Shown here: positions 39,568 to 48,166 of the stretch, in pieces
Position numbering within the stretch: position 1 is the first letter of the stretch
Layout: every line of letters begins with the position of its first letter
Origin: Coriobacteriia bacterium
GTDB taxonomy: Bacteria; Actinomycetota; Coriobacteriia; WRKU01; WQUG01
Direction of reading: 5' to 3'
DNA length: 52,760 bases
Assembly (NCBI GenBank): GCA_009784345.1
Contig: WRBW01000003.1
Coordinates: forward strand, 1 to 52,760
Notes under the pieces: model-generated
Database searches by the model: none
Told to the model about the DNA's origin: nothing
The model's input: the letters and a program-made list of their open reading frames with translations, nothing else
Made by a program: the position numbers and the translations under genes

Positions 39568-39648
39568 AGGTAAAAGTCCTTCCCTTATGATTCCTTTCAC
39601 ATGCCCGACAGAACCTGCGCCCAGAATGCACAGCAGAAAGGAACAGTC

Positions 39649-42600
39649 ATGTCCTTCATCATGAAACGTATTGCTGCAAAAGAAGGCATTGCCCTGGTGC
39701 TCATCGCCACCTTCATAGTGAGCATGCTTGCCTCGGCTGCACTGCCCCAGCGTGCAGATGCCGCCGTTCCTCCCGCGACGCGAGCCTTTGCCACGCAAAG
39801 CGGACATACGGGACCCATCGTGCATAGCTCTGGCACGCTGCCTGCCTACTGCCTTGATCATGGCGCAGCCTCCCCCAATGGCAGGACGCTGACAAGGGGA
39901 GCCAAGCTTTCTCGTGCTACGGGTAGTGTCGAGCAGTCCATTTCGAAGGCCATTGATCTAGGTCCACAAAACCTGAGCAGCAGAACTACCATTAACGGTG
40001 TCAGCTTGAGTAATCTCGAGTGGCGCATGGCGACGCAACTTGCCATCTTTCGTCTGCAGGGTGAGAGCCTTCTCTACAGCAGAAATACCAATCACTGGAG
40101 GGCCTCCACCTGGATTGTGAACCAGGCGACGAGCACCAGTCGCGTTCAGCTCAACCGCTACTGGATCTACCGTCCACCTGCAGGAAGCGGCATTCAAAGG
40201 ATGACCTTTTCCTGGGGCGACCCCCTCACGTCTCGCATTCGCGTACAAAAAACAGATGCGACATCTGGAGCGCTCCTCGCTGGGGCAAGCTTCGGGATAT
40301 GGTCAAACTCCTCCGCTGCTGCTGCGGGAAACACGGGCGCTGCAAGCTTCATAGGACGGGCAAGTTCAGATGCAAGCGGGCAGGCGTGGTGGTATCGCAT
40401 CCCTGTTGGCACAACTTACTATGTCAGAGAGCTTGCTCCACCTGCTGGCTATACCCTCAATACCGCCGTGCTGAGCGTCACCCCGGTGCTGGGAGACGAC
40501 TCTGAAGCGGCACAGGGCAGCCTTCCCCAGTACCTTGCGGGGACTATCGCAAATCAGCGTGCCGCCATTCACAGGATTGAGCTGACTAAAGAGTCGGTGT
40601 CGCCTGGGAGCCAGATCAGTGCTGAAGCCGTGCGGGGTAACCCCGCCTACCAACTGTCAGGAGCACAGTATGGCGTATGGACCGACAGGGCAGCGGCAGA
40701 CAGCAGAAACCTTAATCACCCCTCGATTGTTGGGCGGATGACGACAGACAGTCAGGGCCGAGCCTCGCTGTCAGGGCTGCTGCCAGGTACTTATTTTGTT
40801 CGAGAGTTCATACCGCCGGCTGGTCATGCCCTTGACTTGCAGACGCACAGCGTCACCTTGAGCGCCCTTGCTGGTGGCAGCAGTTTCACCGGCAGGGTCA
40901 GTTCTCAAGATGCGCGTCGCTATGGTGGCAACCTGGTCATTCAGAAAGTTGATGGTGAAACGGGTCTGGCGCAAGCACGTCCCGGTACGAGTCTCGCGGG
41001 GGCAGAATTCGAGATCAGATGGCCTGACCAGCAAGCACCAAGCGGCTGGACAACCCAAACGGTCAGTACCAACGCTGCGGGACGAGCAGTATATCAAGCA
41101 ACAGGGCCGTCAGCGCCCGGGATTCCGATTGGGAACTTTCAAATAAGAGAAACGAAGGCGCCACCGGGCTACCTCATTAGTCCTGAGTATAGCAATTGGA
41201 GAAGCTTCCAGGTGTCAGATTCTCCTGCTGCAGATAGGCCCCCTGAAATAGCCTTGTCTGCCCTGCTTTCCCCCATTGAGGAGCCCATCATAAGGGGAGA
41301 CCTTTCCCTTTTCAAATATGGCAGCGTGAGCGACCAAGGTGTTGAAACGAGTTTCGCCCTTGAACATATCCGCTTTGACCTTATTGACAACATGCCTTTG
41401 GGTGGTGATGGAAGACCCAATCCGCGCTTCGGACAGATTGTTGGAACTCTTTTCACTGACGAAGAAGGCAGAGCAAGCACCCGCGACCTGATACCTGATA
41501 GTGCCAGCTGGGGCAAGACAGATTACCGCAGTGGCTACCTTGAATATGGCGACTACATCTTAAGTGAAGATGCATCAACGACACCGATAGGTCTTCAGGC
41601 TGCAGATGACATGAGCTTCTCTATCACGGAAAACGGAGTTGAGCTGCACTACCTTATCTGCAATAAAGAAATCACGGCTTACTTGAGTATCGTCAAGCGC
41701 GATAGCGAGACCCTCAATACCATTGCCGTGAGCGGAACACGCTTTGACCTACTTAATTCAAACAAGGACGTCATAAGTCGCCTCACTACCGATGAGACCG
41801 GTCACGTACACCTGCCCGAAGTGCTCAAGCATGGCAACTACTATCTTCAGGAAGTACAGGCGCCGGACCGCTACCTCCTGCATACCGAGCCCATAGCCTT
41901 TAGCGTGGACAAAATTAGGGGGCTCGATAATCCCATCGTCATATGCGTCGACAACGACCCCGCAAAAGCAGCTCTTCGCGTTGTCAAAACTGACAGCATA
42001 ACAGCAACAGCCGTACCCGATACGGTCTTTGAAGTCAGAGCTAAAGATGATGTTGTAACCGGCGACGGAACCCTGCGCCTTGCCGCAGGAGAGCTTGCCG
42101 ACATTATCAGTACTGACGCAAGCGGCATTGCCGAAAGCATCCCCCTTTATCTGGGAAGCTACGAGATGCGCGAAGTAAAGACGACGCCTCATTACTTGCT
42201 CAACACGACCGTTTTTGACGTCAAGCTAGAGTACCAGGACCAAAACACAGCTCTTGTCTGGACTGAGGTCCCGGTACAAAATGAGCCCGTGCAGATCAGT
42301 TGCGAGATTGAAAAGCGCACGATATCCATTAGCTCTGCAGCCTATCGCTCTGGCGCAGGAGACGAGGTGCAGATTGATAATAGCGCGCAGGGCAGCAAAG
42401 AGCTCTATCGCTACGACCTCGATTTTTGGTCGACTTCGAACGACTGGGCAGATGAATTCGTTGTTTTTGACGCCTTAGAGGGAGTAGGTGCAGACCAGAT
42501 TCGCTTGCACGAATTGTGGACTCCTATCGTGAAGGGAGACACAAATGGACTTTACAACCTGTGGTATCAGACCAATCTGGCGAGCCAGGAGGTGACGCAG

Positions 42601-43263
42601 AGCTCTGTCAAGGCTGCTTCAAAGGACCTCTTTAACCCTGACAATCCTGAAGCAATCATGCGTTTTGAAAACCACGGCTGGGTACTGTGGTCAGAAGATC
42701 TTGATGCGAGTACGCGCATGCATTTCAAGGTCGATGACCTCAATCTTTCAGAGGGTGAGCACATTACAGGCCTCAAGCTGGAATTTGGACGGGTCGAGAA
42801 AGGCTTTACGAGCCTTGACGATTCCGGGGATTTGGCGCCTTTGAGCTATCTCGTGTACTGTCCGCGTCCCCTACCCAAATATGATGACACGGGTGCTGAA
42901 GTCATCATTTACAACTCGGCAAGCTCCCACATAACCCGCAACATTGTCCTCTTTGATGATGCCGCAGATACCGTCGAGACGAGACTTGTCGAAAGCTTCA
43001 ACTTAGAGCCAGCAATCCAGCCACAGCAAGAACAGCGTTTTGGCGAACGCTTGGTAGAAAACGACGCCTACCCTCGGGGTGACAAAGGCTATGGTAGCCA
43101 ACTCATTGACCCGAATCTGCAACACCGCATCACTGCCCACGGGCCTGCGACCCATGACCTCTTTGATGCTGGATTCTGGTTCGCCTTAGCAGCCGCATCA
43201 GCTTTTGGCGTGCTTGCCTGTCTGCTCGAGATGTATCTACGAAAAAGAGAGGAGGGTCAGTAG
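39649..43263 (+). CDS. Large cell-surface adhesin: signal peptide, putative thioester domain, ~6 SpaA/Cna-B isopeptide domains, C-terminal sorting signal
   Basis: Start probably ATG 39649 (AAAGGA SD). N-domain has AYCLD, TQLAIF and GIQR. Repeats of K-x-D...GA-x-F...Y-x2-RE-x2-P-x-GY. C-terminus is GPATHD + hydrophobic helix + RKR. Confidence 0.85.
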   Translation: MSFIMKRIAAKEGIALVLIATFIVSMLASAALPQRADAAVPPATRAFATQSGHTGPIVHSSGTLPAYCLDHGAASPNGRTLTRGAKLSRATGSVEQSISKAIDLGPQNLSSRTTINGVSLSNLEWRMATQLAIFRLQGESLLYSRNTNHWRASTWIVNQATSTSRVQLNRYWIYRPPAGSGIQRMTFSWGDPLTSRIRVQKTDATSGALLAGASFGIWSNSSAAAAGNTGAASFIGRASSDASGQAWWYRIPVGTTYYVRELAPPAGYTLNTAVLSVTPVLGDDSEAAQGSLPQYLAGTIANQRAAIHRIELTKESVSPGSQISAEAVRGNPAYQLSGAQYGVWTDRAAADSRNLNHPSIVGRMTTDSQGRASLSGLLPGTYFVREFIPPAGHALDLQTHSVTLSALAGGSSFTGRVSSQDARRYGGNLVIQKVDGETGLAQARPGTSLAGAEFEIRWPDQQAPSGWTTQTVSTNAAGRAVYQATGPSAPGIPIGNFQIRETKAPPGYLISPEYSNWRSFQVSDSPAADRPPEIALSALLSPIEEPIIRGDLSLFKYGSVSDQGVETSFALEHIRFDLIDNMPLGGDGRPNPRFGQIVGTLFTDEEGRASTRDLIPDSASWGKTDYRSGYLEYGDYILSEDASTTPIGLQAADDMSFSITENGVELHYLICNKEITAYLSIVKRDSETLNTIAVSGTRFDLLNSNKDVISRLTTDETGHVHLPEVLKHGNYYLQEVQAPDRYLLHTEPIAFSVDKIRGLDNPIVICVDNDPAKAALRVVKTDSITATAVPDTVFEVRAKDDVVTGDGTLRLAAGELADIISTDASGIAESIPLYLGSYEMREVKTTPHYLLNTTVFDVKLEYQDQNTALVWTEVPVQNEPVQISCEIEKRTISISSAAYRSGAGDEVQIDNSAQGSKELYRYDLDFWSTSNDWADEFVVFDALEGVGADQIRLHELWTPIVKGDTNGLYNLWYQTNLASQEVTQSSVKAASKDLFNPDNPEAIMRFENHGWVLWSEDLDASTRMHFKVDDLNLSEGEHITGLKLEFGRVEKGFTSLDDSGDLAPLSYLVYCPRPLPKYDDTGAEVIIYNSASSHITRNIVLFDDAADTVETRLVESFNLEPAIQPQQEQRFGERLVENDAYPRGDKGYGSQLIDPNLQHRITAHGPATHDLFDAGFWFALAAASAFGVLACLLEMYLRKREEGQ

Positions 43264-44186
43264 CCGTAGTTTTGACGCGGGCTCCCATAGTAGAAGCCCG
43301 TACCTTGTGGCCGAAAGGTTTGCGCGCGCAGCTGCTCGACATAATCGCGAGGGTCTGCCCCATCGAGTACCGCACGATAGGCAGAAATCACCGTCGTTAT
43401 ATAGTTGACTCCTTTGGTGCGTCCCTCTATCTTGAGGCTATCGATCCCCGCATTACAGAGGTCATCGATGTGCTCAATCATGTTGAGGTCATAGGGGCTA
43501 AAGATAGTGGTGTATCCGTCATCTTCAATGACGGGAATGCTTTCGTTAGGGCGCTTTTTTTCAACGAGCTCATAGGACCAGCGGCAACTGTGAGCGCACT
43601 GACCTTTGTTTGCGTCTCTGTCAGCAAGATAGTTACTGATGATGCAGCGCCCACTAATAGCCATGCATTGCGCACCATGCACAAAGACCTCGAGCTGCAT
43701 GTCCTCAGGCAGGTTCTTGCGAAGCTCTGTCAGTTCACGTAAGTCAAGTTCACGTGCAGCAACGATACGCCTCGCACCTGCCTCGTACCAAGTCTGAGCA
43801 CTGAGGGAATTGGCAACACTTGCTTGTGTGCTGACATGCAGGTCGATTTCAGGTGCGATCTCGCCTGCTAGCTTTGCAGCCCCCAGATCAGACACTATGA
43901 AGGCATCAACCCCGGTGTCTTTTACGGCACCTAAGTAAGCTCTCAGAGAAGAGAGATCAGATTCATGGATGAGGGCATTGACGGTGAGGTAGATAAGGCG
44001 TTTTCTGGAGTGGACGTACTCCGCCGCGCTTTTCAATTCGTCGACACAAAAATTGGCAGCATTGTAGCGCAGGCCAAAGCTCTTACCGCCACAGTAGACG
44101 GCATCGGCCCCGCAGTCTATGGCGAGCTTAAGCGCCTCGATACTACCTGCAGGCGCCAACAGTTCTGGTCTCTGGTGCGCTCTCAT
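43257..44186 (-). CDS. Peptidase U32 family protein (TrhP/YrrO-like, likely tRNA hydroxylation)
   Basis: [42 protein letters not shown]...GQCAHSCR (FeS cysteines), SLKIEGR. Confidence 0.9.
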
Positions 44187-44923
44187 CCTACCTTGAGATG
44201 GCCAAGGAAAGTCTTCGTACGCTCATGTTGCGGATTTTCAAAGATAGCCTCTGGGGGTCCTTCTTCGACGATGTATCCACCATCCATAAACACGACTCGA
44301 TCTGCGACATCACGCGCAAAGCCCATTTCATGAGTCACGACAATCATGGTCATGCCGCCTTCTGCCAGATCACGCATGACGTTGAGCACGTCACGAACCA
44401 GCTCGGGGTCAAGTGAAGAGGTCACTTCGTCAAAGAGCATAACCGTCGGCTCCATCGCAAGTGCGCGCGCGATGGCAACACGTTGCTGCTGACCTCCTGA
44501 AAGCTGGCTGGGGAAAAAGTCGGCGCGTTCTGCAAGACCGACGCGTTCGAGCTGCGCGTAGGCAATTTCTGCCGCCTGCTCTTTGTTCATTTTGCGCACC
44601 TTCAGCAGGGCAAGCTCAACATTTCCCTGGGCTGTCTTATGCGGAAAGAGATTAAACTGCTGGAATACCATACCCAGCTGCTCGCGCGCTTTATTGATGT
44701 CAGTTCCCTTGGCGTTGATTTGGATGCCATTAACCCAGACTTCACCCGAGGTCGGGATTTCAAGCAGGTTGATGCAGCGCAGCATGGTTGATTTGCCGCT
44801 TCCCGATGGCCCGAGGACACAGACCACTTCACCCTTTTCAACTTCAAGATTTATGTCATGCAAAACGACGTTGTCGCCGTAAACCTTTTTGAGGTTTTTT
44901 ATTTGTACTATAGCTTCGCTCAT
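44183..44923 (-). CDS. Polar amino-acid ABC transporter ATP-binding protein (GlnQ family)
   Basis: [42 protein letters not shown]. Confidence 0.96.
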
Positions 44924-44928
44924 GTTCA

Positions 44929-45876
44929 CTACCTTGGATCCTGCAAAATGTTTTCATCGTGGCTCACAATGTGAGTAGATGGAACATTTAGGCGGGGTTG
45001 TCGTTTTCCAGGACGACCAGATGGTGCAGCTCCCGAGTCTTGTTCTGCCAACTTGTTCTCTAATCTGGCAACCAGTCTACCAGCAGGTATCGTAACAATG
45101 AGATAAAAACAGGCAGCAACCGTGAGAGGTGTCATATTAAACACGCGAGCGGACTCGATACGAGCATTGAGCATGACTTCGCCGATGGCAACCATGGCAA
45201 AAAGCGCCGTATCCTTCAAGAGCAAAATGAATTCTGACATACACGTTGGGATGATACGCCTAAAGGTCTGAGGCAGGACAACATAGGTCATGGCCATCGA
45301 GGTCTTCATGCCCAGTGAGCGCGCAGCCTCCATCTGTCCCTTAGGAATGGACTGGATGCCCGCACGAAAGATTTCTGCCAGATAAGCTGCAGAATTCGCA
45401 GAAAGAATCAGGAAGGCGCGAAACCAAGCTGAAAAGCCCAGCCCCAGAAAGCTTACCTGACTAAAGGGGTCCATTGCTGTTTGAAAGGCAGGTATCAGCG
45501 GCAGACCCATGTAGATAATCAAGATTTGCAGCAGCAGAGGCGTTCCTCTGACCACATCAATGTAGAAGGTTGAAATCCAGCGCAGGGGTGCAATCTTGCT
45601 CATCTTCATAAAAGCAAGACCAAGGCCAAAGGGGATGGCGAGGGCAAAGCCTATAAAGCCCAGTGCCAGCGTGATGGGAAAGCCCTGCAAAACCATCGGG
45701 AAGGTATCGATGGCAATACTGGGAGAAAAGAAGACGCGTGTAAAAGAAAAGGTCTCCCACCATTCAAGCATTCTTGCGAAAATATTGGCAGAACCAAAGA
45801 GTCCCATTAATGCCTGCTGTCCACCCAAAGCATGACTCTGTGAAAAAGCGGTCAATAGTGCGCTCAAATCCCTCAT
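44929..45876 (-). CDS. Polar amino-acid ABC transporter permease (HisM/GlnP family)
   Basis: [34 protein letters not shown] (EAA loop), LLKDTAL. Confidence 0.95.
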
Positions 45877-45958: not shown

Positions 45959-46807
45959 TTAAGGCATCGTTGGAGGATTGTCTGCGTCGATCCAGCGAGC
46001 GTAGATTTCTGCATAGGTACCATCTGCAATAACCGCAGCTAGTGCATCATTGATGGCCTCAGCAAGACCTGTTCTGCTCTTGCCCATCGAGAATCCAAAG
46101 TTTTCCTGTTCTGCTGAAGGAATCGGAATCGTCTTAATGGCAAAGTCGCCTTCTGCAGCCTGGTTCAAGACAACGGGGATGTCCAAAATAACAGCATCTA
46201 CTTCACCTGAAGACATGGCGAGGAAGGTGTCTTGTCCGCCAGCGTAAGGCATGATAGTCACACCTTTGTCTTCGAGGTAGTCAGTAGCAAAAATATGACC
46301 GGTGGTTCCTGTCTGCACGCCAACGCGTGAGCCCTCACCTAAATCAGAGATAGAGGTAATGTTCGAATCTGCTGGTACACCCAGTGCCTGGAATGACACG
46401 AAGTAGGGATTCGAGAACAGAATTGACTGAGCGCGCTCTTCGGTAATGGTCATAGCACTTGCGGCAAAGTCAAAGTCACGACTGTCAGAACTCAGAGCAG
46501 TCAGCAGTGCGTCCCACTCAAAGAAGACGAATTCGACTTCGGCTCCCATTTTTTCAGCAATAGCCTTAACCAAGTCAATGTCAAAGCCAACTACTTCTCC
46601 GCCATCGCGAGACTCAAAGGGAGGATAGGTAGGATCTGTCGCTACTACAAGCGTCTTTCCATCCCCACGTACGGCATCTGCAAGCGTCCAGTCGGCCGTT
46701 GCCTGCACATCATCAACTGCTTCTTCGGTGGCTGAACAGCCAACGACAGCAAAGGCAGCAACTACCATCAGTGCTGCAAGAATCAAACTAAGTAAACCCT
46801 TCTTCAT
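45959..46807 (-). CDS. Polar amino-acid ABC transporter substrate-binding lipoprotein (SBP family 3)
   Basis: Start ATG 46807 (GAGG SD). Lipobox VVGC; TYPPFE, GFDIDL, MTITEER, FSNPY, GVQTGTTG, DGTYAEIYARW. Confidence 0.95.
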   Translation of the reverse strand: MKKGLLSLILAALMVVAAFAVVGCSATEEAVDDVQATADWTLADAVRGDGKTLVVATDPTYPPFESRDGGEVVGFDIDLVKAIAEKMGAEVEFVFFEWDALLTALSSDSRDFDFAASAMTITEERAQSILFSNPYFVSFQALGVPADSNITSISDLGEGSRVGVQTGTTGHIFATDYLEDKGVTIMPYAGGQDTFLAMSSGEVDAVILDIPVVLNQAAEGDFAIKTIPIPSAEQENFGFSMGKSRTGLAEAINDALAAVIADGTYAEIYARWIDADNPPTMP

Positions 46808-47061
46808 TACCTCACACCTTTCCTGTGATCGAACGAATGCTCTCCACGTCATTCATTATTCTAGCTAGTGTATTGTTTCACAACAAAGTTGGCTGTGCAA
46901 TTTTTATCTGTCCTATACAAAAAAAGTGCGCAGACACGTATATATGTATACATTTATGAATGATTTTATCCAAGCGCCCTCCACATAATGCCAACAGCTC
47001 TATGCGTTTTGAGGGCATACATTTCAGATTATGTGCAGATTAGTATGAGGATTCGTGAAGT

Positions 47062-47328
47062 GCTTTCGCGCGGCTGACCTGGTCTTTGACCCCACACTCG
47101 CATACTGGAGCTTTTGCTTGATATGATCTCACGACTAACCCTCTCGCCTGCTCCCTCCTGTTGCCAGGAAATCAACGTAGACGGTACGACTTACCCCTAA
47201 GGTGCGCCATGCTCACGTACACTCCTGTCGAGATATACGCTTACGTGGATTCTTTCGGCCGCACCTGCCTATGAACTAACGGGCATCACCTGTGTGACAC
47301 ACGCGCAACCACAGACCCGCGCGAAAGC
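47062..47328 (-). ncRNA. raiA-motif RNA (large structured ncRNA of unknown biochemical function)
   Basis: Closed by a 12-bp terminal stem GCUUUCGCGCGG/CCGCGCGAAAGC. Blocks in the order I recall for the raiA motif: UGUGGUUG, GAUGCC, AUCCACGUAAG, UGAGCAUGG, CUUAG-GUAAGUC, GGCGAGAG, UAGU-GUGAGA, CCAG-GCGAGUGUGGGGUCAAAGACCAGGUCA. Compensatory pairs AGGUGCG/CGCACCU and CGUAC/GUAUG. Flanked by comF and a solute-binding protein gene. Confidence 0.9.
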
Positions 47329-47334
47329 TTGACT

Positions 47335-47363
47335 ATTATACACTCTCGCCGCAAAATCTTTAA
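47335..47363 (-). promoter_or_regulatory. Promoter of the raiA-motif RNA
   Basis: Perfect TATAAT at 47335-47340, 6 nt before the terminal stem. A weak -35 (TTAAAG) at 17 nt lies inside the 11-bp array. Confidence 0.7.
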
Positions 47364-47413
47364 GCTTTCTTTCACCTTGAGTTAAGGATCCTTTAAGGGT
47401 CAGCTGCCATACT
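47357..47413 (+). promoter_or_regulatory. Four-unit 11-bp direct-repeat array plus extended -10 for comF
   Basis: TCTTTAAGCTT TCTTTCACCTT GAGTTAAGGAT CCTTTAAGGGT, then TGcCATACT; the -10 hexamer starts 10 nt after the last TTTAAG. Confidence 0.65.
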
Positions 47414-47431
47414 GCTTGTGAGGTGATAAAA

Positions 47432-48166
47432 ATGAAGCTCCAGACACAGCTCTTGCAGGCTCCGATTCTCAGCAGTATGAAGGATATACTGGGGGAAATT
47501 GTTGCTCCGACTCGCTGCGCCGGCTGCGAGCGCCAGGGCGCAGTCTTCTGTCCGCACTGCATGGCATCACTGCCCTACCTTTACCTTCAGCACCAGGCTT
47601 GCCCAAAGTGTGCCGGTCCCTATGGTGCGCTGACCTGCACGGAATGTTGGGAAGTAAGTTACAGCTTTAGCCATGCCTTGGCACTGAGCCTGCTTGACGG
47701 CCCACTTGCCCGCGCCATCGTCATCTACAAGGACGGAAATGAGCGGAGGCTGGCTCGCTGCTTTGGAGCTCTGCTGGCGGAGTGCGTCCAAACCACCTGG
47801 TCTGAGTGGCTCGACCCTGATTGTCAAATCAGCTGGATTCCTGCTACGGCTGCTGCTGTTCGAAGGCGTGGCTTTGACCACGGAGAACTGCTTGCTTACG
47901 CCCTATCAAAGCAGCTTAACATTGCGGCACTCCCCCTCTTGTCGCGACCACGCGCACGCGACCAAAGAGGTTTGTCGCGCAAGCAGCGCATGAAGGGGTT
48001 CAAGGAATTTACGGTACAGCCACAAAAAAATAAGCAAGACCTGCACAAGGTCTTGCTTATTGATGATGTCTTTACCACCGGTGCCACCTTAGAAGCAGCA
48101 AGCCTAGCTTTGCTCGAAAATGGTGCTGCAGAAGTTCGGGTCGCTGTATTAGGCCGCGCCTGGTAG
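47432..48166 (+). CDS. comF: ComF/ComFC family protein (double zinc ribbon + PRTase domain)
   Basis: Start probably ATG 47432 (GAGGTG SD). CAGC...CPHC...CPKC...CTEC, RRRGFDH, LLIDDVFTTGATL. Confidence 0.92.
   Translation: MKLQTQLLQAPILSSMKDILGEIVAPTRCAGCERQGAVFCPHCMASLPYLYLQHQACPKCAGPYGALTCTECWEVSYSFSHALALSLLDGPLARAIVIYKDGNERRLARCFGALLAECVQTTWSEWLDPDCQISWIPATAAAVRRRGFDHGELLAYALSKQLNIAALPLLSRPRARDQRGLSRKQRMKGFKEFTVQPQKNKQDLHKVLLIDDVFTTGATLEAASLALLENGAAEVRVAVLGRAW

Follow-up and report, generated by a model that had tools for sequence, protein, structure and literature searches.

A full-length raiA-motif (ModT) RNA between an inverted comF gene and an amino-acid ABC operon in a Coriobacteriia lineage in which hpf is not found

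Previously described raiA-motif loci have comFC upstream in 74% of cases and raiA downstream in 66%, with ABC transporters among the neighbours, and the survey from which these values are taken counts the Coriobacteriia among the carrier classes (Soares et al. 2024, PMC10861870). The comFC gene is sometimes inverted (Weinberg et al. 2017, PMC5737381). The 2024 survey also describes the RNA as an abundant independent transcript and reports a sporulation and aggregation defect that is rescued from a plasmid. ModT, as described by Lence et al. (2024, PMC11706538), is driven by a SigA promoter, resembles rRNA in abundance and stability, occurs in two 3′ isoforms and affects c-di-GMP. In both of these 2024 accounts clostridial deletions are complemented in trans. 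The text of a more recent cryo-EM report (He et al. 2026, PMC12968392) gives a linker consensus, UUAGA(C/A)GUAA, that is proposed as the docking site of KhpA–KhpB.

The sequence examined here, referred to as the window, is a 52 760 nt stretch of Coriobacteriia bacterium contig WRBW01000003.1 (assembly GCA_009784345.1). When the whole window was searched with cmscan and Rfam 15, two matches above the gathering score were returned, one tRNA and raiA. The raiA match, at 47325–47065 on the minus strand, scores 148.3 bits against a gathering score of 101.3 (E = 6e-37), spans model positions 1–209 of 209 and is not truncated. A first-pass annotation of the sequence had named this segment a raiA-motif RNA, and the Rfam covariance model agrees. 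The 12 bp closing stem given there is also present at the limits listed in Table 1, where an extra GCU/AGC lengthens the 9 bp stem of the model, and both of the conserved blocks that it quoted were found. A permissive Rfam re-scan of 46600–47500 returned raiA again and a chance match to the sR23 snoRNA (14.6 bits, E = 0.57); that match aside, the re-scan found no other RNA family in the 258 nt that separate the RNA from the binding-protein gene. The 267 nt RNA has a minimum free energy of −103.3 kcal/mol (z = −3.72), and none of 200 shuffles folds as well. The segment had been called free of open reading frames. In the strict sense it is not, as two mechanical minus-strand ORFs overlap it, of 48 aa (47029–47175) and 97 aa (47269–47562), but nothing suggests that either codes and a protein-coding reading was discarded. 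The locus clearly holds a full-length copy of a known structured RNA, the raiA motif (ModT), and this copy is an ordinary member of that family.

Table 1. Features of the raiA RNA locus and its neighbours, in window coordinates
Feature	Position	Strand	Evidence and details
raiA-motif (ModT) RNA gene	47062..47328	(−)	about 267 nt; Rfam match 47065–47325 plus 3 bp per side
−10 box TATAAT	47335..47340	(−)	sequence and conservation; predicted start G 47328
P2 hairpin	47279..47304	(−)	3+7 bp, 4 nt loop; 26 nt insertion relative to Rfam model; local fold −10.5 kcal/mol
PK1 5′ strand AGGUGCG, apical loop of P3b	47260..47266	(−)	7/7 pairs form in window; 3 pairs changed on both sides; putative mapping of cryo-EM name
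PK1 3′ strand CGCACCU	47200..47206	(−)	covariation on 40 RNAs
Exposed single-stranded linker UUAGGGGUAA	47191..47200	(−)	between PK1 and P6; sequence
Long P7 hairpin, GCAA tetraloop	47145..47183	(−)	20+9 nt insertions relative to Rfam model; local fold −13.6 kcal/mol
P8 domain, E-loop-like internal loop, GGGU...GCUC base	47108..47141	(−)	model alignment and covariation
comF-family gene	47423..48166	(+), away from RNA	PF00156 9.5e-8; PF18912 9.2e-4 (below cut-off); TIGR00201 9.9e-22 (below curated cut-off)
Separate ABC operon promoter, TTGCAC, 17 nt spacer ending TGA, AACAAT	46872..46900	(−)	65 nt before start codon
SBP_bac_3 amino-acid-binding lipoprotein gene	45959..46807	(−)	PF00497 2.7e-38; TIGR01096 8.3e-49 (below cut-off)
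ABC permease gene	44929..45876	(−)	PF00528 1.1e-22
ABC ATPase gene	44183..44929	(−)	PF00005 8.9e-37

Stem names used here follow the cryo-EM architecture as set out in the text, rather than the figures or coordinates, of PMC12968392, and their placement on the window RNA is our own mapping. The Rfam consensus could not serve as the full test structure, because PK1 is drawn in it as a nested helix and two of its pairs are non-standard. By our mapping, the RF03072 consensus also omits stems P3 and P4 of the cryo-EM architecture. Covariation was examined on a plain MAFFT alignment of 40 RNAs from the class, which are kin. With pseudoknots included, standard pairs were found in 93.0% of 2619 cells, compared with 30.3–42.0% in slid controls in which the partners were shifted by one to three columns, and changes on both sides were seen in 37 of 66 pairs. 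None of 500 shuffles reached any of five measures, though kinship makes the shuffle control overstate and the slid control is the fairer one. Across nine families, 73 columns of the alignment are invariant.

The three-part closing stem is present, and the GU bulge in the 5′ strand and GGU bulge in the 3′ strand of P1 align to the bulges of the model. Compensated variation was found in all nine model pairs of P1a, and P1c is paired in 99.5% of cells. The two inner pairs of the 3 bp extension of P1a are also variable; the commonest pair is found in 22–23 of the 40 RNAs, a change on both sides in 11–13, and 5–6 are unpaired. All pairs of the core, made up of P3a–P3b, P4, PK1 and PK2, form in the window, and across the alignment P3a (99.4% of cells paired), P3b (100%), PK1 (95.4%) and PK2 (93.8%) each include changes on both sides. 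P1b, P4 (CCAC/GUGG) and one P8 helix never vary and are uninformative on covariation. MAFFT aligned two elements poorly, P5 with 68.9% of cells paired and the P8 tip with 76.7%. Two of the pairings listed in the first-pass annotation, AGGUGCG/CGCACCU and CGUAC/GUAUG, correspond to model helices. The third, GGGG/CUCC, does not, since the model pairs GGGU with GCUC.

The optional stem P2, at the position described in the text of PMC12968392, coincides with the 26 nt insertion in the window RNA, and the five basal pairs of P7 are 97.5% paired among the 40 RNAs. The window linker UUAGGGGUAA differs from the published consensus UUAGA(C/A)GUAA at two positions and is identical at 8/10; its GG variant is common to 21 of the 40 class genomes. 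Judged from the alignment, the P8 domain varies within the class. One half of its E-loop, AGUAGUGA, is missing in seven genomes of family f4 (alignment columns about 242–251), and the RNA of one genome, G031, has large insertions in both P5 and P8. From its predicted stems, the window RNA belongs to the subtype with all eight stems (P2, long P7 and P8) that has been described for Nocardioides. The Nocardioides sp. RNA, according to the text of PMC12968392, likewise has P2 together with a long P7 and a P8 that contains an E-loop, and the same core pairings can be written for the window RNA and covary. The two RNAs differ in length (267 nt in the window and 253 nt in Nocardioides sp.) and in the linker variant. 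In contrast, the clostridial RNAs, ModT and that of Clostridium acetobutylicum, are without P2 and have a short P7.

To place the locus in its class, 41 genomes from nine families were surveyed, the window genome included. raiA was found above the cut-off in 40/41, in exactly one copy each and with scores of 122–167 bits, and in 32/32 of the high-quality genomes. The one genome in which it was not found, G011, is 86% complete. Assembled from a metagenome, the window genome amounts to 1.48 Mb over 128 contigs, with a completeness of 85% and contamination given as 2.4%; the single raiA copy in it is thus counted in an 85%-complete assembly. The nearest relatives of the MtnA protein encoded in the window are proteins from Coriobacteriia MAGs (80–84% identity), and the small assembled genome of this actinomycetotal host sets it apart from the clostridial hosts. 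As the score of 148 bits sits inside the range for the class, and as the P2 insert, the long P7 and the linker variant are all common to relatives, the copy is typical and the earlier description of it as divergent does not hold. Nor is the locus a new kind of element. Earlier work (PMC5737381, PMC10861870 and PMC11706538) already describes the associations with comFC and binding-protein genes, the occasional inversion of comFC, the occurrence in Coriobacteriia and the action in trans, and the locus adds a further copy to an RNA class known from over 2500 species.

Directly before P1 there is a housekeeping-type promoter, as for ModT and the C. acetobutylicum RNA. The TATAAT that had been pointed out ahead of the RNA is present as the −10 box (Table 1), and a TAnnnT box lies at a fixed distance upstream in 40/40 genomes, ending 7–12 nt before the model start (7 nt in G019), where about 0.026 per five-position window would be expected by chance. 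A TGn extension of the −10 box was found in 34/40 (33 counted by script, and G019). Sequence farther upstream is not conserved across relatives, and the −35, read by eye as TTAAAG, matches at only 3/6 positions. This promoter is missing from the output of a strict promoter scan, whose rule demands a stronger −35. As comF is on the opposite strand, the RNA is not a product of read-through from comF here, and an origin as a comF 3′ UTR or a processing product was ruled out for the window. We infer that the RNA is transcribed independently, as first proposed, from its own promoter with a start near G 47328. A promoter-like site for comF, TTGACT-17-CAAAAT, was seen at 47329–47357 on the plus strand, with its −35 abutting the raiA −10 of the opposite strand. 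The comF and raiA RNA genes may share a back-to-back control region.

In the direction of the RNA strand, the upstream side begins with an IleRS gene that is truncated by the end of the window, goes on with genes for LspA, an RluD-like pseudouridine synthase and MtnA, and closes with the inverted comF. Downstream come the genes for the SBP_bac_3 lipoprotein and for the ABC permease and ATPase, and then one for a U32 peptidase. Pfam and NCBIfam matches on either side bear out the location between comF and an amino-acid-binding protein gene that had been assigned to the RNA. A comF directly upstream and a binding-protein gene downstream are features shared with other raiA motif RNAs, as are the full-length match, the P1 GU/GGU bulges, both pseudoknots, the conserved blocks and the single copy; this neighbourhood is typical, not obligatory. 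The comF product has a double zinc ribbon and a phosphoribosyltransferase domain, its likely true start is the ATG at 47432, after GAGGTG, and the gene lies 97 nt upstream of the RNA. The lipoprotein gene is the first of the ABC operon and its start codon is 258 nt past the RNA. At the far end of the operon, the ATPase gene, which ends at 44183, and the U32 gene, which starts at 44186, overlap.

The ABC operon has a promoter of its own, and the arrangement TTGCAy, 17 nt ending TGn, NANAAT is found in five of the six closest genomes examined, counted as the window and four of its five nearest relatives, 65–85 nt before the starts. The AT-rich spacers around it otherwise do not align by eye. The strict scan listed a different, overlapping pair, TTGTGA-17-AATAAT, at 46883–46855. 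A strict scan of 46700–47500 found no intrinsic terminator downstream of the RNA and ahead of the binding-protein gene, the sole one listed being inside the binding-protein ORF, and a T7 run 140 nt downstream of the RNA follows only a 4 bp hairpin. Read-through from the RNA into the ABC operon is therefore possible. Unlike the situation for ModT, no intrinsic terminator that could give a long isoform was found in the window.

Neighbouring genes were compared by local tblastn (E 1e-8, half of the query covered) in contexts of approximately 12 kb from the 40 genomes, and start codons in relatives were taken as the first ATG or GTG with a Shine–Dalgarno-like motif. Where comF was detected upstream, it was inverted in 8/36. 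In 37/40 genomes the next gene downstream, on the strand of the RNA, encodes an SBP_bac_3 lipoprotein; all 37 products contain PF00497 and, when aligned, an invariant lipobox Cys. A 457 aa ORF, whose N-terminus we take to be Ffh-like, or a small protein is found in the remaining three. The lipoprotein start follows P1 by 25–40 nt in 22 genomes, by 64–105 nt in nine and by 184–302 nt in the six of the window subclade. Examples of the tight spacing are L041:5090-5968 (−), L052:6262-7137 (+) and L053:4876-5967 (−). In two families hpf comes straight after the raiA-proximal lipoprotein gene, without transporter genes.

The window binding protein does not appear to correspond to these proximal lipoproteins. 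In G004, which is from the same family, the proximal lipoprotein is 20% identical to it, and a third binding-protein gene, just before the permease gene, encodes a product that is 54% identical. As the best homologue of the relatives' proximal lipoprotein in the window genome is the operon binding protein, at only 23% identity, the proximal lipoprotein gene and the leader-like layout were probably lost from the window lineage.

The hpf gene is downstream of the RNA on the same strand in 17/40 genomes, at 1.2–1.4 kb in two families and at 3.6–4.4 kb, right after the ABC ATPase gene, in three. Where those three families have hpf, the window has a U32 peptidase gene after the ATPase gene. The first-pass annotation had recorded no raiA/hpf gene nearby, and this extends to the whole genome and family. 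Using a search that was positive in 11/14 well-known genomes, PF02482 was not found in the 85%-complete window genome, in 10/10 genomes of its family (three of them at least 93% complete) or in 3/3 genomes of a second family, and was found in 28/28 genomes of the other seven families. The locus thus differs from the usual raiA loci in its inverted comF and in that hpf was found neither in the genome nor in the family. The window lineage keeps the RNA without hpf, the gene behind the motif's name.

Whether the RNA works on the adjacent operon or elsewhere can be weighed from this gene order. The RNA could be a cis-acting, riboswitch-like leader that senses a metabolite and controls the amino-acid ABC operon via read-through or processing. 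It resembles the riboswitch leaders of ABC binding-protein operons in being a complex conserved fold on the same strand, upstream of such a gene and, in many relatives, tightly spaced from it. With the lipoprotein gene next in 37/40 genomes, starting no more than 105 nt after P1 in 31 and only 25–40 nt after it in 22, a separate promoter outside the RNA gene would have no space in the tightest cases. Binding-protein genes are downstream in two phyla (Weinberg et al. 2017, PMC5737381), and Rfam 15 types RF03072 as 'Cis-reg; riboswitch', a typing that stands although two papers show action in trans. However, the relatives are kin and their shared gene order is weak evidence, and the window departs from riboswitch leaders on several counts. 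The gap is 258 nt, the operon has a separate promoter that is conserved among the nearest relatives, and in the scan and the sequence no expression platform was seen, with neither a terminator nor a Shine–Dalgarno-occluding stem directly before the gene. The RNA has been kept even though the best homologue of the proximal lipoprotein is so distant, and there is one RNA per genome despite several binding-protein genes. Elsewhere in the family clostridial deletions are complemented in trans (PMC10861870, PMC11706538), no small-molecule binding was seen in the in vitro tests described in PMC5737381, and no ligand is known. The gap of about 250 nt had been advanced as an argument for trans action. 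In the window it stands, joined by the operon promoter, but it is weaker than stated because the lipoprotein gene starts 25–40 nt after the RNA in more than half of the relatives (22/40). We consider a leader role quite improbable overall, and unlikely for the window, where the gap and the conserved operon promoter support the view that the RNA is not the leader of the ABC operon; it is possible in the tightly spaced relatives. A combination of the two roles, in which most Coriobacteriia would make the RNA as the 5′ segment of the message for a dedicated SBP_bac_3 lipoprotein, both leader and source of a processed, stable trans-acting RNA, would suit the 25–40 nt layout, which spans seven families and in which hpf is often last in the same gene string. 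It is doubtful in our view. If true, it could couple amino-acid sensing to a growth-phase switch, and the window lineage would be a natural uncoupling, with the proximal lipoprotein gene and hpf lost, an operon promoter gained and the RNA intact.

By analogy with clostridial ModT, an autonomous, stable RNA that acts in trans is the reading we hold with high confidence, and two further accounts were weighed against it. In the first, the match would be a chance hit or the decayed, non-functional remnant of such an RNA. No support for this was found, although two substitutions in the linker and the large insertions lower the score slightly. The match extends across the full model at E = 6e-37, every core helix is intact in the window, the promoter is conserved and the same substitutions and insertions are common to relatives, so that we give this account next to no weight. 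Alternatively, the RNA could act in trans without being a protein scaffold, as a ribozyme or RNA-processing factor, or as a sensor of a ligand such as c-di-GMP. A highly conserved core with 73 invariant columns and two pseudoknots would fit such a role; a mutant with raised c-di-GMP, tRNA and 5S is described in PMC11706538, where both ideas are raised, and the window genome contains one GGDEF gene. Against this, neither PMC5737381 nor PMC12968392, as far as their accounts go, reports catalytic or ligand-binding activity, and GGDEF was not found in 10/41 class genomes. Five of the genomes without GGDEF carry raiA and are at least 90% complete (G004, G013, G019, G027 and G039), G019 being a single contig and 99% complete. 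As these genomes are near-complete, the link to c-di-GMP cannot be general, which argues against a general dependence of the RNA on c-di-GMP synthesis. We regard a ribozyme or sensor as improbable.

For the autonomous trans-acting RNA, the present analysis supports the fold and the promoter, and the rest of the mechanism is drawn by analogy. Transcription from the TATAAT box would start near G 47328, so that the first transcribed bases would be the 5′ strand of the 12 bp P1a. On the evidence of the model match and covariation, the ends of the RNA would pair as P1a, followed by the GU/GGU bulges, P1b and P1c, and the body would fold into P2, the P3a/P3b–P4–PK1–PK2 core, P5, the long P7 and the E-loop P8. 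As in C. acetobutylicum and Clostridioides difficile, the RNA would then accumulate as a stable, abundant species that acts in trans and not on its neighbours. Its core and the exposed UUAGGGGUAA linker may be presented to proteins such as the KH-domain pair KhpA–KhpB, and together with protein partners it may help to time growth-phase transitions. This work would be independent of the ribosome-hibernation gene hpf. As the RNA is intact and has its promoter while hpf and the proximal lipoprotein gene are not found, its role appears to be independent of both. To our knowledge, Coriobacteriia do not sporulate, and the clostridial phenotypes concern sporulation. A role that depends on hpf, on a proximal lipoprotein neighbour or on sporulation is therefore not open to this RNA.

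Candidate partners are encoded in the window genome. One is a KhpB-like protein with Jag_N and KH domains in a 276 aa frame, and there are two KhpA-like frames of 89 aa, at C125:2170-2367 (−) and C93:1707-1904 (+), both on small contigs. As most relatives have one KhpA-like frame, the second may reflect a real duplication, heterogeneity among strains or contamination. The KH_KhpA-B domain was found in 41/41 class genomes, mostly in one short and one longer ORF, and its presence does not discriminate because it is also found in G011, which has no raiA match. Jag_N was found in 22/41, and in 0/13 of the genomes in families f4, f6 and f7. Given that KH_KhpA-B is in all 41, the absence of Jag_N is not evidence against a KhpB-like partner, and Jag_N was dropped as a marker for KhpB. 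He et al. (2026, PMC12968392) give an affinity of about 2 µM for the binding of raiA RNA by KhpA–KhpB; in the earlier global analyses cited in PMC11706538, ModT was not found bound to Hfq or KhpB in C. difficile.

Beyond the ABC operon, the window includes a gene at 39601–43263 on the plus strand for a 1220 aa surface protein. Five SpaA/prealbumin-like domains accompany a thioester domain (TED) in it, as is typical of Gram-positive adhesins or pilins.
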